Below are positions 39,043-51,212 of a DNA stretch of 56,998 nucleotides, one piece after another (position 1 is the stretch's first letter; each line of letters opens with the position of its first letter). Under the pieces are notes generated by a model. The model saw nothing but the letters and a program-made list of their open reading frames with translations. It did no database searches and was not told where the DNA came from. The stretch spans positions 555,607-612,604 of the forward strand of contig KE561209.1 in NCBI GenBank assembly GCA_000442015.1. The letters are read 5' to 3'. Origin of the DNA: Rozella allomycis CSF55. Taxonomy: Eukaryota. A program made the translations under genes and the position numbers.

Positions 39043-40883
39043 TTAATTAAGAGATCCTCTACATTTAGATGAACCACAACAGCAAGGGATCTTCTTTTCT
39101 TCTCTGGGAAATTTGTAGTCATACGTGATTTCTTCGCCTACCTGAATGGCCTTCTTTGCATAAAATACAATTTTCTTTTGGTTTTCGATTGTTATTATTT
39201 TCGCAACACAATTTGGCTATATTAAAGAATACAAATATCTACGTCACAAGAATGGTTTATAAATCGCGCCAGATTGCCTTTTTTCGTAGCATCTACTACG
39301 AGCTCATCATCAACACGAAAAAGGTAGCTACTTCCAATACCTTCTTTTTCATATCTTTTTTCTCTTGCTTCTGCTACTATGGCCCGAACTATTTCACCAA
39401 CATATTCAATGATCATGTCGCCTTGATCTATTTGTTCTAATGTGAATAGGCCCCAAGCATGAATCATCGATTTATCAAATTTGAGATTTTTCTTTCGCAT
39501 TCGCATGGAATTGTACTTCATTAAATCAGAATTTCCTTGTCCTGGATGCAGAAGTTGTCTATTCAGCCGTCGTTGATCTCTGCTCGAATGATTGGCATTT
39601 AAATTTTCTGATTTCTTTAAAGTCTCAACTTTTAGGCGCTGAAATTCAATTTTCTGCTTTTTCGAAAATTGGAATATCCCTTCGGTGCGCGCGCATCCAG
39701 TCTCACATTTAACATGATCTTTAACCTGATCAATAAGTGGAAGAGCTGGCTTATTTATAATATTTTCGGGTTCGCTATCAGATGATTCTTCGTATTCTTT
39801 ATTGACCTGTTTTGTTTTACTAGTTTTCGATTTGCCCAGCTTTCTGATATCAATGTTATTCTTTAACGCCTATAATTATTAGAAGATCATTTTACCAGAG
39901 GAAATTTAGAATTGTCTTGTTCTTGCTCTGGCTTTGGAAAATGTCGATTCAAAAACGAATCGATTACAGGACCACACCAATCGAAAATCAAATCTTTCAA
40001 AATAACTCTTTGCAATTGTCTTCGCAATAAATATTTTGTCTCGTCAATTAATTCATCTTCTTCTTCAAATTTGAAGGTGATTTTTTGGCAGTTTTCATGA
40101 AGGCTTCTACCGTTGTACATATTGTAGCATTGACGCATGTCATTTTTAGAGTCAAAGTATAGTAAAACACTTCTACTTGATATTACAACCATTTGCAATA
40201 AAAATATGATCTTACTTGGTAAATAGAAACATCTATAAATGCTTTTCTAATATCTTCCTTGTCAAACGATCTTGGAATACATTTCAATGAAATTTTAAGG
40301 CAAGGATATATTCTATTAATTCTCTCACCTCTTTTATTCTCTTGTCTTCTCTTGTCTTCTTTCCTAATTGAATATTCTGGTGTCTCATTTTTCATTCGAC
40401 TTAATGATTTCTTTTGCTCTTCATATATTTGACCTAAGTATGAAGAATTTATATGGTCTTTTACAATTTTTGTCATATTTAACATTAAAGTCCGATTGAG
40501 CGCAATTTACAGCTTTCCTCGCCATTGAATAATCCACATATTCTACAGATGCAAATCCCATAAAGATCCCAGTAGATAAATCTCTTAATAGCTTGACACT
40601 TTGAATCTCTCCGTAATCAGAAAATTTAGCCTTCACATATGATTCTGTCACTTGGTTATGCCTAAACCCTGTAATTAAAACTGTGTTTGGCGGTTTTTCT
40701 TGAATAGAATATTCATCCCACTATTTTAATATTAAAATTACTATCTACTANCGAGGCAGAGCAGGCGGAACAAACCGATTGCGAGGATCACGAAGAGTTT
40801 CCGAATCTATAGACTACTTTAAAAATTACTCGTTGTTTTACGAAAAGAGTGTTCTTCTTACTCAAATCTACTCGGAACTTCAT
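39043..40883 (-). CDS. SET1: SET1 H3K4 methyltransferase
   Basis: [11 protein letters not shown] (N-SET); [30 protein letters not shown]; post-SET CRGSLN. Confidence 0.95.
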
Positions 40884-41000
40884 TTGTGAAATTTAAAATT
40901 AAAAAAATGGCCTAAAAATAGAAAAAATCACGTTCACGATACATGAACATTTCAAACATATATAAAAAAGTCGGCGAGCGTGATATTTATTTTATTTTGA

Positions 41001-42326
41001 ATGGATTATGAACTTTTCATGACTTTATTAGACTCATGTCTAAGACTAATGACTTTTATCTCTATACTCTCTTCAGTTACCCTTATAGCAGTCTTCATTA
41101 TATGGAGACAGTTTCAGAACACTCAAAACAGAATAATAATGTTTATGGCGATCAGTATTCTAATTTCTACATTTGTCAATTCGTTTGGAACTTCGACCAT
41201 GTATTTAGGAAAAGCATCATTGGCGTGCCGGATTCAAACAATATTATTTCAATGGATGGGGCTATCATCTTGCTTTTGGATTCTTGCGTTTCATGTTAAC
41301 ATCTTTTTGACAGTATATACCAAACTTTCAGTTCGAGCAATAAGATACTTGGAAATTTTATACCATCTTCTATGTTGGGGCGGCCCTTTGTTACTTGCTT
41401 TGATTTCTAACAATACGGACAAGATTGAAACCGGCATTTGGTGCGAACTTAACACAACTGAAAAGTTTGGGGCCTTCTATGCGCCAATTTGGACTATTTT
41501 CATTATTCAGGTGGTAGTATATATCTCTGTTGGTAGAAGACTATGGTGGTCCCCATTAAATATCCGATATACATGGAGTAGACCTAGTATTGATGTCAAT
41601 GAATCCAAATCTCTTTTGGGAAATTCAAATACAAGAAAAATTAAAATCCTTGATACCAGCTTTACTATGATATCAGCTTATTTTTTGGTTTGGATAATTC
41701 CTACAGTTTATGACATCTCCTTCATTTTATCGAATAGCAAATCAGGAAAAATATTTAGAGATCAAAATAGGATTCTATATGGCTTAAAAGCTATCTCTAT
41801 TCTTCTTGGGGGAGGGATTTTGTGTCTTGTTTACCTTCGTTGGGCCGTAAGATCAGTGGAACAATTCAAAAGTTATTTATTCCGACAAAAATTTGGACCG
41901 TTATTTGAAAAATCTCCTGCATATGTCATGAGAGAATCAGTTCCGATATTGAAGCAAAATACTTTGAATAGTGAAAAACGACCATCAGAAGCGCATTCAC
42001 TAATGCCCGGCATGCAACAAAATCACATAGTCGTGGCATTGTATTCATACGAAGCTGAAAGGAACGATGAGTTGAATTTGTTGGAAAACGATAGAATAGT
42101 TTTGGTAGAGACGCCAAGAGGCGGCTGGTTCAAAGGTTACAAGGAGTCAGATCCAAATCAGTTGGGTTGGTTCCCCTCTCACTTTGTTTGGCCAATTGGT
42201 CCCAACAGTGCAAGACCAAGCTTTTTCATTGGCACCGATACCACGGAATCTACAGAAGATGACGAACGCACAACGTATCAAAATAAGTTGTCGTCTTTCT
42301 CTGAAAATTACAAACATTATTATTAA
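41001..42326 (+). CDS. cAMP-receptor-like 7TM GPCR with a C-terminal SH3 domain
   Basis: Seven hydrophobic helices, CRIQ..Q, YHLLCWGGP, GIWC, FYAPIW; SH3 ALYSYEAERNDEL..GGWF..GWFPSHFV. Confidence 0.85.
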   Translation: MDYELFMTLLDSCLRLMTFISILSSVTLIAVFIIWRQFQNTQNRIIMFMAISILISTFVNSFGTSTMYLGKASLACRIQTILFQWMGLSSCFWILAFHVNIFLTVYTKLSVRAIRYLEILYHLLCWGGPLLLALISNNTDKIETGIWCELNTTEKFGAFYAPIWTIFIIQVVVYISVGRRLWWSPLNIRYTWSRPSIDVNESKSLLGNSNTRKIKILDTSFTMISAYFLVWIIPTVYDISFILSNSKSGKIFRDQNRILYGLKAISILLGGGILCLVYLRWAVRSVEQFKSYLFRQKFGPLFEKSPAYVMRESVPILKQNTLNSEKRPSEAHSLMPGMQQNHIVVALYSYEAERNDELNLLENDRIVLVETPRGGWFKGYKESDPNQLGWFPSHFVWPIGPNSARPSFFIGTDTTESTEDDERTTYQNKLSSFSENYKHYY

Positions 42327-42411: not shown

Positions 42412-43670
42412 ATGGATTGGCATAAGGTGGAGAAATATGGTGACGACTCTTCACCATCAATTAGTAACGAGTCTAGTAAATGATAAATGAAATTCTCATA
42501 TAGGCGAGGAAGAGATTTCTGCTGTTCAATTGAATGATGTTTTAGCTTCTGATGACAATTCTACGTACCTTACCTTGGTTGGATCGTCAGAACAGCCTGT
42601 GGACTCGCTTTATTTACCTGGTCTTACAGACAGAGCATTTTACTCTCAATTTGAGCTCGGGGTATTTAGAATTCAGAATTTGAATAACTTCATTGCCAAG
42701 TTAGTTAATAATGGGTTAAAGTCCGTAATCATTTTCGACACTCGAGCATGCATGTATGAATGGGTTCATAATAATCCATTATCTCTAATTAACAAATTTG
42801 TTACATTGTAATTGTTGTGGGGTTTATTTAGGCAGTTGTTGTGTTAGTAATGTTCCGAAAACATCAAGCGCAGTTTCAATTTATGTTTCGGGTATTGAGC
42901 GTCATAAGAATATTCTTCGTGTGGAATATCAAAAAAACAGTTACTTTGTCATCGCGGATGAGGGAAACAACATGGAAAACGAGGAAATGAATTTGATACA
43001 GCTTTTGAAAACATCTAAAGTCAGAAAGATTTGGAAAAACAGGACTATATTTATGGTTATTTCTTTAGCCCTAACGTTTATTTTGATATTTGCATGTTCT
43101 GAACCCGAGCCGATTTCTAACAACAGATATTCATTGACTGACAAACGGACATTTATTACGTTTGATGATTTAAAGTCCAATAATACGCGTCATTTTACCG
43201 CTACCAAATATTCAGACGAGTATCGCGGAAACACAACGACGAATACCAAAAGTTGGATTAATCATAAACTAGAAAATAATGTCTTGTCAGGCAGAAAATG
43301 GTTGGCTAGAACTGCATTGACTATAAAAACTACAGTTATGACATTTATAGCCTACATTACGAATCAATTCATTGCGCTCTATAACTTTGCCACGTATCTT
43401 GTTGAAGGCTTTTTTTCTTTCATGAAAGGGGTTTTCCTTGCTGCAAAAAATGTTTTGTTTGCAATACATGGTCAGACTAGCCATGAAAAGGTTGGTCGAC
43501 ATTATAAGCCAGATTGCTCCAGAAATAATACAATAAGTAGACGAAACTTATATTTTTTATATATAGAGGAGGGAAAAGTTGTTGATGTAGAAGTGTTTTC
43601 TGGTAGAAACCTAATAATAGGGGGATTGATTGCAGTTTTATCGCTTTCACCATTGTTATTCATGTGTTAA
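42412..43670 (+). CDS. Hypothetical membrane protein
   Basis: Spliced start MDWHKVEK; TM IFMVISLALTFILIF and a C-terminal TM; internal splice junction uncertain. Confidence 0.45.
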
Positions 43671-43708: not shown

Positions 43709-44806
43709 TTATTTTCTTGTTTCCGGTGAAGGAGTTCTCGATAATTGTCGATCTTCACGGGAACGGCTTCGTCTTCTGTGGTTCGAACGACTTCTTTCCC
43801 TTGAATAATAATGTTTTCTAGAACGATCAGATCTTCTTCTATGCCTTGAAGTACTTCTACTGCGCTCTCGTCTGTCCCGAGAACGACGTCTATGTCTGTC
43901 CCGAGAAAGTGATCTATCGGAAGAGTAAGACCGACGACTACGGCGTCTTTCCCTGTCCGCAGATATTTCAAGATCTCTATCTCTCGAGGAATCCCTCTTT
44001 CTAACACGATCTCTAGAGCGAGACCGCCTTGTTTCCCTTGTCCTTTCAGGTATTTTATAAAATTCTTCCATGTAAAGCTTCTTAGGATTAACGAAAATGT
44101 GTAAGAAGGAACATTGAGGTCCTTTTGAGCATCGATCTTGTAAGTATTGGCCTATTATAATCAATTTCAAAAATTACGACACACTGCGTTAAACCATTTT
44201 AAAACGGGGGCGAATTCAATATACAATGGCTTTCCAGCATAAAACCTACCAGATAATGCTTGATAGGCATTCCACGACGATTCAAGCTGTGAAAATTCAA
44301 CGTATACATGCCCTCTCAAATGTACCATTTTATTTTTAGTAACCTTTACTGCATTAAATATGTATTGTTACGTATAGCCGGGTGATTGCACCAAATTTAG
44401 TCAATTCCTCATGAACATCATGGAAAAACTCCTCAAATTCTTCTTGGCTTTCTTCTTTATCCCTAGCAAGAGGATTCATTTGAATAGCTATATCATTATA
44501 CATGTGATGAATCAATAAGGTTTTCGATACTTTTGGCCTAGGGTGTTCTTTGGAGCATCTTCCCCCAAATTTGCATAATCCGGTCTTCAAGTAGAAAAAG
44601 CAGTACTTTTGATCATCGCGATATAAATCTTCGATGGGCCTAGCATCAAAATTAGAAAGATCGGGAACTGCTATGGTTGGTATTCTAACCATTGGCTCTT
44701 GGTAAATTTCATCTTCTTTCGTATCATTTTCTTTGTTTTTTTCTTCCAAAATGAGAGATTCCTATAGTTTTTAAGATAGTACATTCCTTACCCAATCTGT
44801 TTTCAT
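43709..44806 (-). CDS. ZRSR2: ZRSR2/URP (U2AF35-related) splicing factor
   Basis: CFFYLKTGLCKFGGRCSKEH; UHM HLRGHVYVEF..GRFYAGK..PVLKWFNAVC (ZRSR-type); RS tail. Confidence 0.8.
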
Positions 44807-48890: not shown

Positions 48891-49016
48891 AGTTCCCTTT
48901 TAATGGACTCGTTCAGATCATACATTTCATTGAATAATAAACGAATATTTTTATAAATTGCTTCATATTATCAATAATCACTGATGGATTAACCCTTGCA
49001 ATTTGTTATTTGTACC

Positions 49017-51212
49017 ATGCAGCGACTTACCCCATATAGAAAGCCAGTGTTTCCGGTTGTGTATCCCCAAAATGCTTTCGTGAACTGTATTGTAGATAAT
49101 AAATTCAGATCTGCTATCGTATTAGAAGATAAAGGGGGCTCACTAAAGATCAAATTGGAGGAATCGTACAATGACAAGGCAATATTTTTTGTATCGAAAA
49201 GGTCGGTTCTATTTTATTTTAAACCGGATGAATACCAAAAGAAACTAAAAAGATTTAATTACAAGCAGTTGCTGAAGAAGGATGAGAAATTTTATGCTGA
49301 TCTCTGGAATATCGGTATTAAAGAAAGCAGTCATTGGCTTTCACCTTACCAAATCAGTGAATATTTATGCGGATCTGAAAATTTTGAACATTCATATACA
49401 GCTTTTAAATATTTAATTGGTGAACCGCTTTATTACAATCAGTCATTGTTTTCGAAAGGTTCTTTTTATTGTAGAACAGAAGAAGATATTAAAATGATTG
49501 AAGAAACAATAAAGTTTTATGAAAATAATCCAGAAATCGTAGAATCTTTAAAGAAGAATATTAGTGCAATGTTTGGAAGGTTCATTCAAGGGAAAGAAGT
49601 TGTTTGGATCAAGTTTACGTCAGGTGAAAGATTATTAGTTGAAGCTTTATATGATTATATTTGTTCTGATGATTTGCAGCAAATAAGACACCCGTACAAG
49701 AAAATATTTAAAGAGCTGTGTTCGCCCTTGTGTAATGATCACATGTTACTTGTTTCCTTTTTCCACAAAGCAAAGGTATTTGATATTTATAGAGAACGAT
49801 ACATGGGCATTGATACTTTCTCTACCAATAAATTTCCCGTATACGAAAAACACGTACATAAAGCGATAGATAATAAAGAGTCGAATGCTGTAGCCAAATC
49901 AGATCCTCTATTTCCATTTTCAATGGATAATCTAAGGCATGACTTTGGAAATATGCCTGCTTTTGCAATTGATAGTTTGGAAGCGAGTGAAATTGATGAT
50001 TCTATTTCTATTGAAGTAACAGACGATCATTGTACTTGGATTCATGTTCACATTGCAGATCCAACTTACTTATTGTCACCTAAAAGCAAATTGACATTAT
50101 TTGGACAGCGAAGGGCTACTACAATGTACTTTCCTACTGGACATATTCCTTTGTTTCCAAAGACCTTTACCCAGATGTTTTCATTAGACTCTGGCAAAAT
50201 TAATAAATGCATAACTTTCAGCTATCAAGTTGATTCGAATGGAGAAATCATAGACAGAAAAATACGACTCTCTGTTGTCTCAAATCTAAAAAGAATAACG
50301 TATGATGAAGTTGATTCAATTTTAGAGTCATATGCTCAAAATGAAAATTATAACATATTCAAGCAAATGTTAAACGTAGCTGGAAGGTTAAAACATAGAA
50401 GGTTTCTCAATAATGCCAGAGATTATGATTTGCCTAAAATTAAACCTAAAATAAGCAAAATTGGTGAGTCTGTAGTCATTAAATTGGTTAGTGAAAAAGA
50501 TACACCTTCCAAGCTAATCGTTACAGAATTGATGATAGCAGCTAATTATTCTGCTTCTGCATTTGCCAATGAACATAAACTACCATATTTGCATCGACTT
50601 CAACCAGACAATAGCTTTGACTTTAATCAAGTCTCTTGCATCTTAAATTCTGATCAATCAATATCATGGAAATTTGTAAATATGCTAAACCTTTTCCCTT
50701 TTATTCCTCACGCCATCGATACAGTCAATTTCGCTCCACATGTTTCCCTTGGAATAGGATGTTATTCCAGAGTAACTTCACCGCTCAGAAGATTTACAGA
50801 CATTATTAATCATTTCCAAATTAAAGCATCATTATCTAACAAAGCATTAGCCTATTATAATGCGGATTTACAGCCGATTTCAGAGTATATGAATTCGATG
50901 AATCTTTACGCTAAAACTATTGAAAAACAGACAGGATTTTATTGGACAATTCATTTGTTACTTCAAAAATTAAACATTTCAAAAACTATAACGAAAACAC
51001 CTTTAATGGCAAAAGGATGGATTGTTCCCTCCAATTTAGACAATGAAGAAAAGGCTCCAAACACTATTAGAGTCTTTTTACATGAATACGGCATGGTNNN
51101 NNNNNNNNNNNNNNNNNNNNNNNNGTATGAAGCAGCCGAGGAAGTTAATGTGCAAATTCTTAAAGCTGATCCCTTTAAGATGAATGTTTTGGCGGCATTT
51201 GTAAAAAAATAA
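49017..51212 (+). CDS. DSS1: RNase II (RNB) exoribonuclease, Dss1/CYT-4-like
   Basis: AIDSLEASEIDDSIS, WIHVHIADP, ELMIAAN, YSRVTSPLRRFTDIINHFQI. Confidence 0.8.
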   Translation: MQRLTPYRKPVFPVVYPQNAFVNCIVDNKFRSAIVLEDKGGSLKIKLEESYNDKAIFFVSKRSVLFYFKPDEYQKKLKRFNYKQLLKKDEKFYADLWNIGIKESSHWLSPYQISEYLCGSENFEHSYTAFKYLIGEPLYYNQSLFSKGSFYCRTEEDIKMIEETIKFYENNPEIVESLKKNISAMFGRFIQGKEVVWIKFTSGERLLVEALYDYICSDDLQQIRHPYKKIFKELCSPLCNDHMLLVSFFHKAKVFDIYRERYMGIDTFSTNKFPVYEKHVHKAIDNKESNAVAKSDPLFPFSMDNLRHDFGNMPAFAIDSLEASEIDDSISIEVTDDHCTWIHVHIADPTYLLSPKSKLTLFGQRRATTMYFPTGHIPLFPKTFTQMFSLDSGKINKCITFSYQVDSNGEIIDRKIRLSVVSNLKRITYDEVDSILESYAQNENYNIFKQMLNVAGRLKHRRFLNNARDYDLPKIKPKISKIGESVVIKLVSEKDTPSKLIVTELMIAANYSASAFANEHKLPYLHRLQPDNSFDFNQVSCILNSDQSISWKFVNMLNLFPFIPHAIDTVNFAPHVSLGIGCYSRVTSPLRRFTDIINHFQIKASLSNKALAYYNADLQPISEYMNSMNLYAKTIEKQTGFYWTIHLLLQKLNISKTITKTPLMAKGWIVPSNLDNEEKAPNTIRVFLHEYGMXXXXXXXXXXYEAAEEVNVQILKADPFKMNVLAAFVKK

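Follow-up and report, generated by a model that had tools for sequence, protein, structure and literature searches.

A cAMP-receptor-like seven-transmembrane receptor with a predicted cytoplasmic SH3 domain in Rozella allomycis

We analysed a stretch of 56,998 nucleotides from Rozella allomycis CSF55 (NCBI GenBank assembly GCA_000442015.1, contig KE561209.1, positions 555,607 to 612,604 of the forward strand; hereafter the window) and identified a gene encoding a receptor of the G-protein-coupled type (GPCR) that carries an SH3 domain in its cytoplasmic tail. The core of the encoded protein, referred to as P0001, is a cyclic AMP (cAMP)-receptor-like seven-transmembrane (7TM) receptor that falls in the Dicty_CAR / GPR157 / class-B-like superfamily, and the tail bears a predicted SH3 domain of the canonical, peptide-binding type. 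Judged by its sequence, the gene is real and intact in Rozella allomycis. P0001 is a 7TM receptor to which a cytoplasmic signalling module, of the non-catalytic adaptor type, is fused, and as such is not categorically new. The GPCR-SH3 architecture is apparently undescribed in print; the sequence itself is already public.

A preliminary description of the locus had proposed a 441-residue open reading frame (ORF) free of N bases, seven transmembrane (TM) helices, a pair of cysteines at TM3 and the second extracellular loop (ECL2), and a complete cytoplasmic SH3 domain in a cAMP-receptor-like GPCR, and each of these elements was recovered. The ORF (41001..42326, plus strand) is uninterrupted, and none of the 59 N bases of the window falls inside it. 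An in-frame TGA at 40998-41000 lies directly 5' of the ATG; therefore, an N-terminal extension would be impossible without an intron. The G+C content of the window is ∼30-39%. The N bases comprise a 27-base run (51098-51124) and 32 isolated singles (for example at 40751), which is typical of a draft assembly.

The protein has a deposited counterpart at NCBI (P0002), the Rozella allomycis CSF55 hypothetical protein ROZALSC1DRAFT_21422, for which the UniRef label starts with 'G-protein coupled rec...'; the sequence is thus public and automatically named as a GPCR. The two proteins are identical at 391 of 395 residues (99%), and the four differences (T138M, N323T, I399V and P401T) may be allelic or may stem from single-cell assembly. 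M47 of the window ORF is the start of the deposited model, which thereby lacks TM1 (window 41001-41138) and describes a protein with six TM helices. This start was rejected. The alignment to the Dicty_CAR profile begins at residue 12 and that to most distant relatives at residues ∼9-20; we therefore take the longer ORF as the better model, with TM1 as part of the protein.

The 7TM core was examined by hydropathy, profile and structure searches. Kyte-Doolittle hydropathy with a 19-residue window, in which segment borders are approximate, revealed seven TM segments (Table 1), and these agreed with the long helices of a full-length AlphaFold2 model (predicted template-modelling score, 0.69). The model was built on a 49-row alignment, the rows of which were picked from 150 listed matches for coverage and moderate length. 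Its block-mean predicted local distance difference test (pLDDT) values lay mostly at 84-98 for the helices, and at 53-74 for ECL2, the third intracellular loop (ICL3) and ECL3. The Pfam family Dicty_CAR (PF05462) matched residues 12-173 with 37.6 bits (cut-off, 21; E 1.8e-9); the match covers the TM1-TM5 part alone (profile positions 12-175 of 305), and a weak Pfam Frizzled match was also present. A search of PDB sequences with the 7TM part returned weak Frizzled matches alone, at E 0.04 or worse. When the AlphaFold2 model was compared with the PDB by Foldseek, at least 500 matches were obtained at E<=0.001. All 50 of the 50 listed matches were GPCR chains (E ∼4e-7 to 5e-6), including Frizzled-4 (FZD4), GLP-1R, ADGRD1, PTH1R, SMO and the ghrelin receptor. 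On these Pfam and Foldseek results, a non-GPCR 7TM protein was rejected.

Residues C76 (in ACRIQ), W147 and C148 (in GIWC) were nearly invariant (at least 90%) across the 49-sequence alignment of relatives, and, as in GPCRs generally, C76 is a probable partner in the extracellular TM3/ECL2 disulfide. The N-terminus before TM1 comprises 11 residues and is acidic, with no lysine or arginine; ICL2 holds three such basic residues and ICL3 six, and ECL2 contains two N-x-S/T sequons. Together with the odd number of helices, these features indicate an N-out/C-in topology, which therefore places the SH3 tail in the cytoplasm. Neighbours in the ESM Atlas, taken as leads only, fell into Dicty_CAR / 7tm_2 / GPR157 clusters (plants, diatoms, chordates, sponges and fungi) with scores of 0.84-0.85, and SH3 was not among the common Pfam families of these clusters.

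The cytoplasmic tail spans ∼158 residues, and the SH3 domain starts ∼60 residues past TM7. In the AlphaFold2 model, TM7 passes into a juxtamembrane helix that reaches residue 302 (modelled helix, 270-302). The Pfam SH3_1 profile (PF00018) matched over its full length (positions 1-48 of 48) with 38.2 bits (cut-off, 22.9; E 1.1e-9), and SH3_9 (29 bits) and SH3_2 also matched, below their own cut-offs. A search of PDB sequences with residues 335-400 yielded 256 different SH3 chains with E<=0.01. The top solved matches were NCK1/NCK2 (∼38 bits), and further matches included STAC3, p47phox, PLC-gamma, myosin I, vinexin/sorbin, Fyn/Src, Abp1, PACSIN2, beta-PIX and CD2AP. The residues that form the ligand pocket of canonical SH3 domains are the tyrosines of ALYDY, the tryptophan of the WW dipeptide, and the proline and tyrosine of the 3-10 helix. 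The corresponding positions of P0001 are Y348 and Y350 (ALYSY), W376 (GGWFKG), and P392 and F395 (GWFPSHF). These pocket positions are in part supported by an account of the fungal osmosensor Sho1 (PMC4904012). The RT loop is acidic (E351, E353, D356 and E357), and the tail beyond the domain contains one non-canonical PxxP, PIGP at 398-401.

Relatives of the receptor were sought by phmmer with the 7TM part alone (residues 1-300) as the query, so that SH3 similarity could not bias the matches. The search yielded 365 proteins at E<=1e-3 and 52 at E<=1e-10; at E<=1e-30, the Rozella protein itself stood alone. We scanned the best 149 non-self proteins of the 365 matches with Pfam, 74 of them at E<=1e-3 and 75 at E<=1e-5. 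The majority were Dicty_CAR-positive, and an SH3 domain was detected in one of the 149, P0012 (SH3_1, 34.7 bits), a hypothetical protein from JGI, encoded on a 21,150-bp contig, with 409 residues and ∼33% identity to P0001. The nearest relative lacking SH3 was P0003 (87 bits, 35% identity).

The two SH3-bearing proteins are collinear, with TM3-TM7, an ICL3 motif, a linker motif and SH3 in the same order. The shared ICL3 motif reads VGR(R/K)xWW(S/T)PxNxRYT and the shared linker motif E(S/R)VP(I/L)LK(Q/K)N (ERVPLLKKN in P0012), and the SH3 domain of P0012 displays ADYNF, GGWWKG and GWFPCNYV. With the tail of P0001 alone (linker plus SH3), P0012 was matched at 65.5 bits (E 1e-17). This exceeds the ∼38 bits of the best solved SH3 domain; therefore, the whole tail is homologous, rather than a generic SH3 alone. 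A third protein, P0006, is a 228-residue fragment that ends after TM6 and has the ICL3 motif, and P0001, P0012 and P0006 all have Y174, V177, G178, R179, W182, W183, P185 and R189.

A quick IQ-TREE phylogeny (LG+C20+F+G4 by posterior mean site frequencies; 49 rows, 292 7TM-only columns, SH3 columns excluded, no bootstrap) contained long branches. It placed the three proteins in one clade with a Shimodaira-Hasegawa-like approximate likelihood-ratio support of 99 and a long stem of 0.91; the pairing of P0001 with P0012 received 80. The fusion is considered to be inherited, since its collinear layout recurs in a second, distant organism. The tree is compatible with a single fusion in the ancestor of what is a small, divergent and deeply branching subfamily of receptors. 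SH3 domain shuffling is common in eukaryotes.

Word-index searches of protein collections returned P0002 as the one match for P0001 alone, and P0002, P0012 and the SH3-only protein SH3RF2 for an alignment used as the query. The same search with P0003 found an ENA protein, a JGI protein and a distant GPCR of Anaeromyces robustus. A scan of metagenome contigs with this alignment produced 332 pattern matches, none of which was confirmed. One metagenome locus obtained with P0012 as the query (L001) was rejected: the word YEADYNFE lay inside a 250-residue ORF without receptor-like sequence and was judged from the translations to be a chance match.

Several observations weigh against a receptor with a canonical, inherited SH3 fusion. 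The architecture was found in two sequences only, P0001 and P0012, and the predicted gene model of P0012 begins within TM3 and has no N-terminus. The threshold of E<=1e-5 in the batch of 75 proteins means that a weak SH3 domain could be missed there. Within the domain itself, F395 replaces the usual tyrosine of the 3-10 helix. In the full-length AlphaFold2 model, the tail (305-441) has a pLDDT below 50, which is because one further alignment row only, P0012, covers it. A separate model of residues 330-408, built on three alignment rows, was all-beta with five strands and a mean pLDDT of 57.4. The listed Foldseek matches of this model were all SH3 entries, but at template-modelling scores of ∼0.4-0.5 and a root-mean-square deviation of ∼9 Å. 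The SH3 assignment therefore rests on the sequence profiles and not on a confident fold. Finally, three relatives of the Dicty_CAR type carry unrelated domains, namely an Nnf1 kinetochore domain (P0049), an N-terminal cytochrome P450 (P0051) and Aa_trans (P0140). All three probably arose by the merging of gene models and not by true fusion, and they call for caution when architectures are read off predicted proteomes.

Such merges lend some weight to the view that the fusion in Rozella is itself an artefact or a dead gene, whether an assembly chimera, a read-through of two neighbouring genes or a pseudogene. We regard this as very improbable. The ORF in the window is single, uninterrupted and N-free, and its product, from M47 through to the stop, recurs in an independent assembly of this species. 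In addition, P0012 keeps the elements in order, with the linker conserved and the SH3 pocket residues intact, at ∼33% identity, which indicates purifying selection on the whole arrangement.

The closest known systems were compared with the fused receptor. The Dictyostelium cAMP receptors (cAR1-4) and cAMP-receptor-like proteins share with P0001 the homologous 7TM core, the short N-terminus and the TM3/ECL2 cysteine pair, and GPR157 and the plant GCR1-like proteins are Dicty_CAR neighbours. P0001 sits on a long branch with two relatives only, and its Dicty_CAR likeness does not imply cAMP binding. According to the main text of a 2025 survey that sampled the Rozella proteome, the termini of the cAMP receptor family are short and GPR157 has no extra domains (PMC12716839). 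Unlike the family so described, P0001 has a C-terminal tail of 158 residues with an SH3 domain, its N-terminus of 11 residues being short. The term 'SH3' is absent from the main text of that survey, and one of its supplements contains neither Rozella nor SH3.

Fusions of GPCRs to other modules are established. The preliminary description had held that fusions to PIPK and RGS are described, and both are listed in two reviews, which between them cover PIPK, INPP, AC, PDE, TKL, an N-terminal aspartic protease, DEP and the plant 7TM-RGS proteins (PMC6033456, PMC5784254). 'SH3' occurs zero times in the main text of either review, and GPCR-PIPKs seem absent from fungi according to the text of one of them (PMC5784254). 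The GPCR-bigrams of oomycetes and other protists follow the same design as P0001, an N-terminal 7TM domain with a C-terminal cytoplasmic signalling domain (PMC6033456). However, the accessory domains of GPCR-bigrams and 7TM-RGS proteins are catalytic or GTPase accelerators, whereas that of P0001 is a non-catalytic, peptide-binding adaptor. P0001 consequently lies outside the GPCR-bigram definition of van den Hoogen and Govers as worded in that review, because it has the layout but its SH3 domain is not catalytic (PMC6033456). A GPCR-SH3 fusion was not found described in the literature searched, which left out most subscription journals. The claim that such a fusion is rare or undescribed thus holds as far as it was tested, with SH3 in one of the 149 best relatives. 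The preliminary description had also named, as findings that would speak against it, fewer than seven TM helices, the lack of a GPCR profile match, or an architecture common and described in fungi; none of the three was observed.

In animals, the beta1-adrenergic receptor recruits endophilin and the dopamine D4 receptor recruits Nck/Grb2, in each case via proline-rich motifs of the receptor, and such direct contacts between a GPCR and an SH3 protein serve signalling or trafficking. These partnerships have the PxxP on the receptor and the SH3 domain on the partner, and the polarity is inverted in P0001, where the receptor bears the SH3 domain. The best functional analogy within fungi is Sho1, a polytopic plasma-membrane sensor that, in the account already cited, uses a C-terminal SH3 domain to recruit a proline-rich motif of the mitogen-activated protein kinase kinase Pbs2 (PMC4904012). 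Sho1 shares with P0001 the C-terminal cytoplasmic SH3 domain alone. Sho1 homology was rejected, since P0001 has seven TM helices with GPCR homology and Sho1 is a 4TM protein that is not a GPCR. Of the 256 solved SH3 matches, the 60 that were listed did not include Sho1, so that no specific relationship between the two SH3 domains is indicated.

GPCRs normally reach SH3 adaptors through proline motifs or arrestins. By analogy with Sho1, we infer, with somewhat better than even confidence, that P0001 would act as a cAMP-receptor-like receptor whose SH3 domain tethers a proline-rich partner. The 7TM part would sense an extracellular cue, and the SH3 domain would hold at the receptor a proline-rich protein, such as an actin regulator of the WASP/Las17 type, an endocytic adaptor or a kinase. 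In this way, occupancy of the receptor would be coupled locally to this partner, alongside or instead of heterotrimeric G proteins, in a working mode likened to that of the 4TM-plus-SH3 osmosensor Sho1 as it recruits Pbs2. In P0001 and P0012 alike, SH3 ligand motifs of class I ([RK]xxPxxP) and class II (PxxPx[RK]) are absent; therefore, the SH3 domain probably acts in trans and not by autoinhibition. The same absence makes it quite improbable that the domain inhibits or conformationally locks the receptor by holding its own intracellular loops or tail, to be freed upon activation. A cis arrangement could draw on the ICL3 motif, VGRRxWW(S/T)PxNxRY, which occurs together with SH3 in both SH3-bearing proteins, and on the PIGP that follows the Rozella SH3 domain. 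However, the ICL3 motif is also found in the P0006 fragment, which ends after TM6, and PIGP is not conserved in P0012.

The main rival to a scaffolding receptor is a role of the SH3 domain in receptor trafficking. The domain would then dock to the endocytic or sorting machinery, or cluster receptors, and set surface level and down-regulation, with signalling left to ordinary G proteins. In other GPCRs, arrestin or adaptor binding exerts such control, and serine/threonine-rich tails are phosphorylated for desensitisation. The tails after the SH3 domain are serine/threonine-rich in both P0001 and P0012, and the conserved linker resembles an acidic dileucine motif: ERVPLL of P0012 fits [DE]xxxL[LI], but the Rozella version, ESVPIL, has I-L and not the canonical L-L or L-I. 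Among the solved SH3 matches, the endocytic and actin adaptors Abp1, myosin I, PACSIN2 and CD2AP would suit this role; the best matches, however, are to Nck, a signalling adaptor. On balance, we consider trafficking to be possible but on the unlikely side, and it is compatible with the tethering of a proline-rich partner.

A bolder form of the tethering receptor would be a G-protein-independent shortcut from a host cue to actin, in which ligand binding exposes or repositions the SH3 domain, and a proline-rich regulator of actin or endocytosis, of the WASP/Las17 type or another, is then drawn directly to the site of stimulation. We view this as doubtful. If it were true, one protein would link host cues to local actin remodelling in wall-less Rozella and a relative, with bearing on zoospore targeting, invasion and intracellular phagocytosis, and a new class of non-catalytic 'GPCR-adaptor' fusions would be defined. 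Host sensing by P0001 would be a plausible, if speculative, role for a receptor of an obligate endoparasite. A built-in adaptor domain would be a natural hard-wired, possibly G-protein-independent GPCR output, and SH3 would extend the list of GPCR fusions (PIPK, INPP, AC, PDE, TKL and RGS) with a non-catalytic type. Rozella is a key early-branching lineage for the evolution of fungal sensing and phagotrophy, and a single small SH3 domain offers a concrete handle on signalling, through a search for binding partners, in an otherwise intractable endoparasite. The practical weight of the finding is limited by the two sequences and by a function that is so far our inference. The features of the gene are collected in Table 1.

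Table 1. Features of the receptor gene, in window coordinates.
Feature	Residues	Position	Strand	Basis or remark
Whole gene		41001..42326	+	441 codons plus stop, ATG to stop, standard code
7TM receptor core	12-283	41034..41849	+	Hydropathy, Pfam, AlphaFold2, Foldseek, relatives
TM1	12-38	41034-41114	+	Kyte-Doolittle hydropathy
TM2	44-64	41130-41192	+	Kyte-Doolittle hydropathy
Cys76 (ACRIQ), top of TM3/ECL1	76	41226..41228	+	Near-invariant column
TM3	81-106	41241-41318	+	Kyte-Doolittle hydropathy
TM4	117-135	41349-41405	+	Kyte-Doolittle hydropathy
Trp147-Cys148 (GIWC), ECL2	147-148	41439..41444	+	Near-invariant; N-glycosylation sequons N137 and N151 either side
TM5	155-181	41463-41543	+	Kyte-Doolittle hydropathy
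Clade-specific motif VGRRLWWSPLNIRY	177-190	41529..41570	+	TM5 cytoplasmic end to ICL3 start
TM6	216-244	41646-41732	+	Kyte-Doolittle hydropathy
TM7	257-283	41769-41849	+	Kyte-Doolittle hydropathy
Juxtamembrane helix and linker	284-344	41850..42032	+	AlphaFold2 helix, P0012 alignment
Linker motif E-S-V-P-I-L-K-Q-N	312-320	41934-41960	+	Conserved; resembles acidic dileucine motif
SH3 domain (predicted)	345-393	42033..42179	+	Pfam SH3_1, PDB sequence matches
Post-SH3 tail	394-441	42180..42323	+	Acidic, serine/threonine-rich (TDTTESTEDDERTT), predicted disordered

The neighbouring genes in the window were also surveyed. Upstream, on the opposite strand, an ORF at 39225-39869 (-) contains a SET domain (51.8 bits) with a weak N-SET match; it probably belongs to a Set1/COMPASS-type histone methyltransferase gene that is split by introns over several ORFs and continues to ∼40485 (-). 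The downstream neighbour at 42789-43670 (+) is an ORF of 232-293 residues with hydrophobic segments and no Pfam family. It is followed at 43709-44173 (-) by an ORF that is extremely rich in arginine/serine repeats (RSRSRDR...), has no Pfam match and looks like the RS domain of a splicing factor. Further along, a 739-residue ORF at 48993-51209 (+) carries an RNB domain (203.8 bits), which identifies it as an exoribonuclease of the RNase II / Dis3 family.

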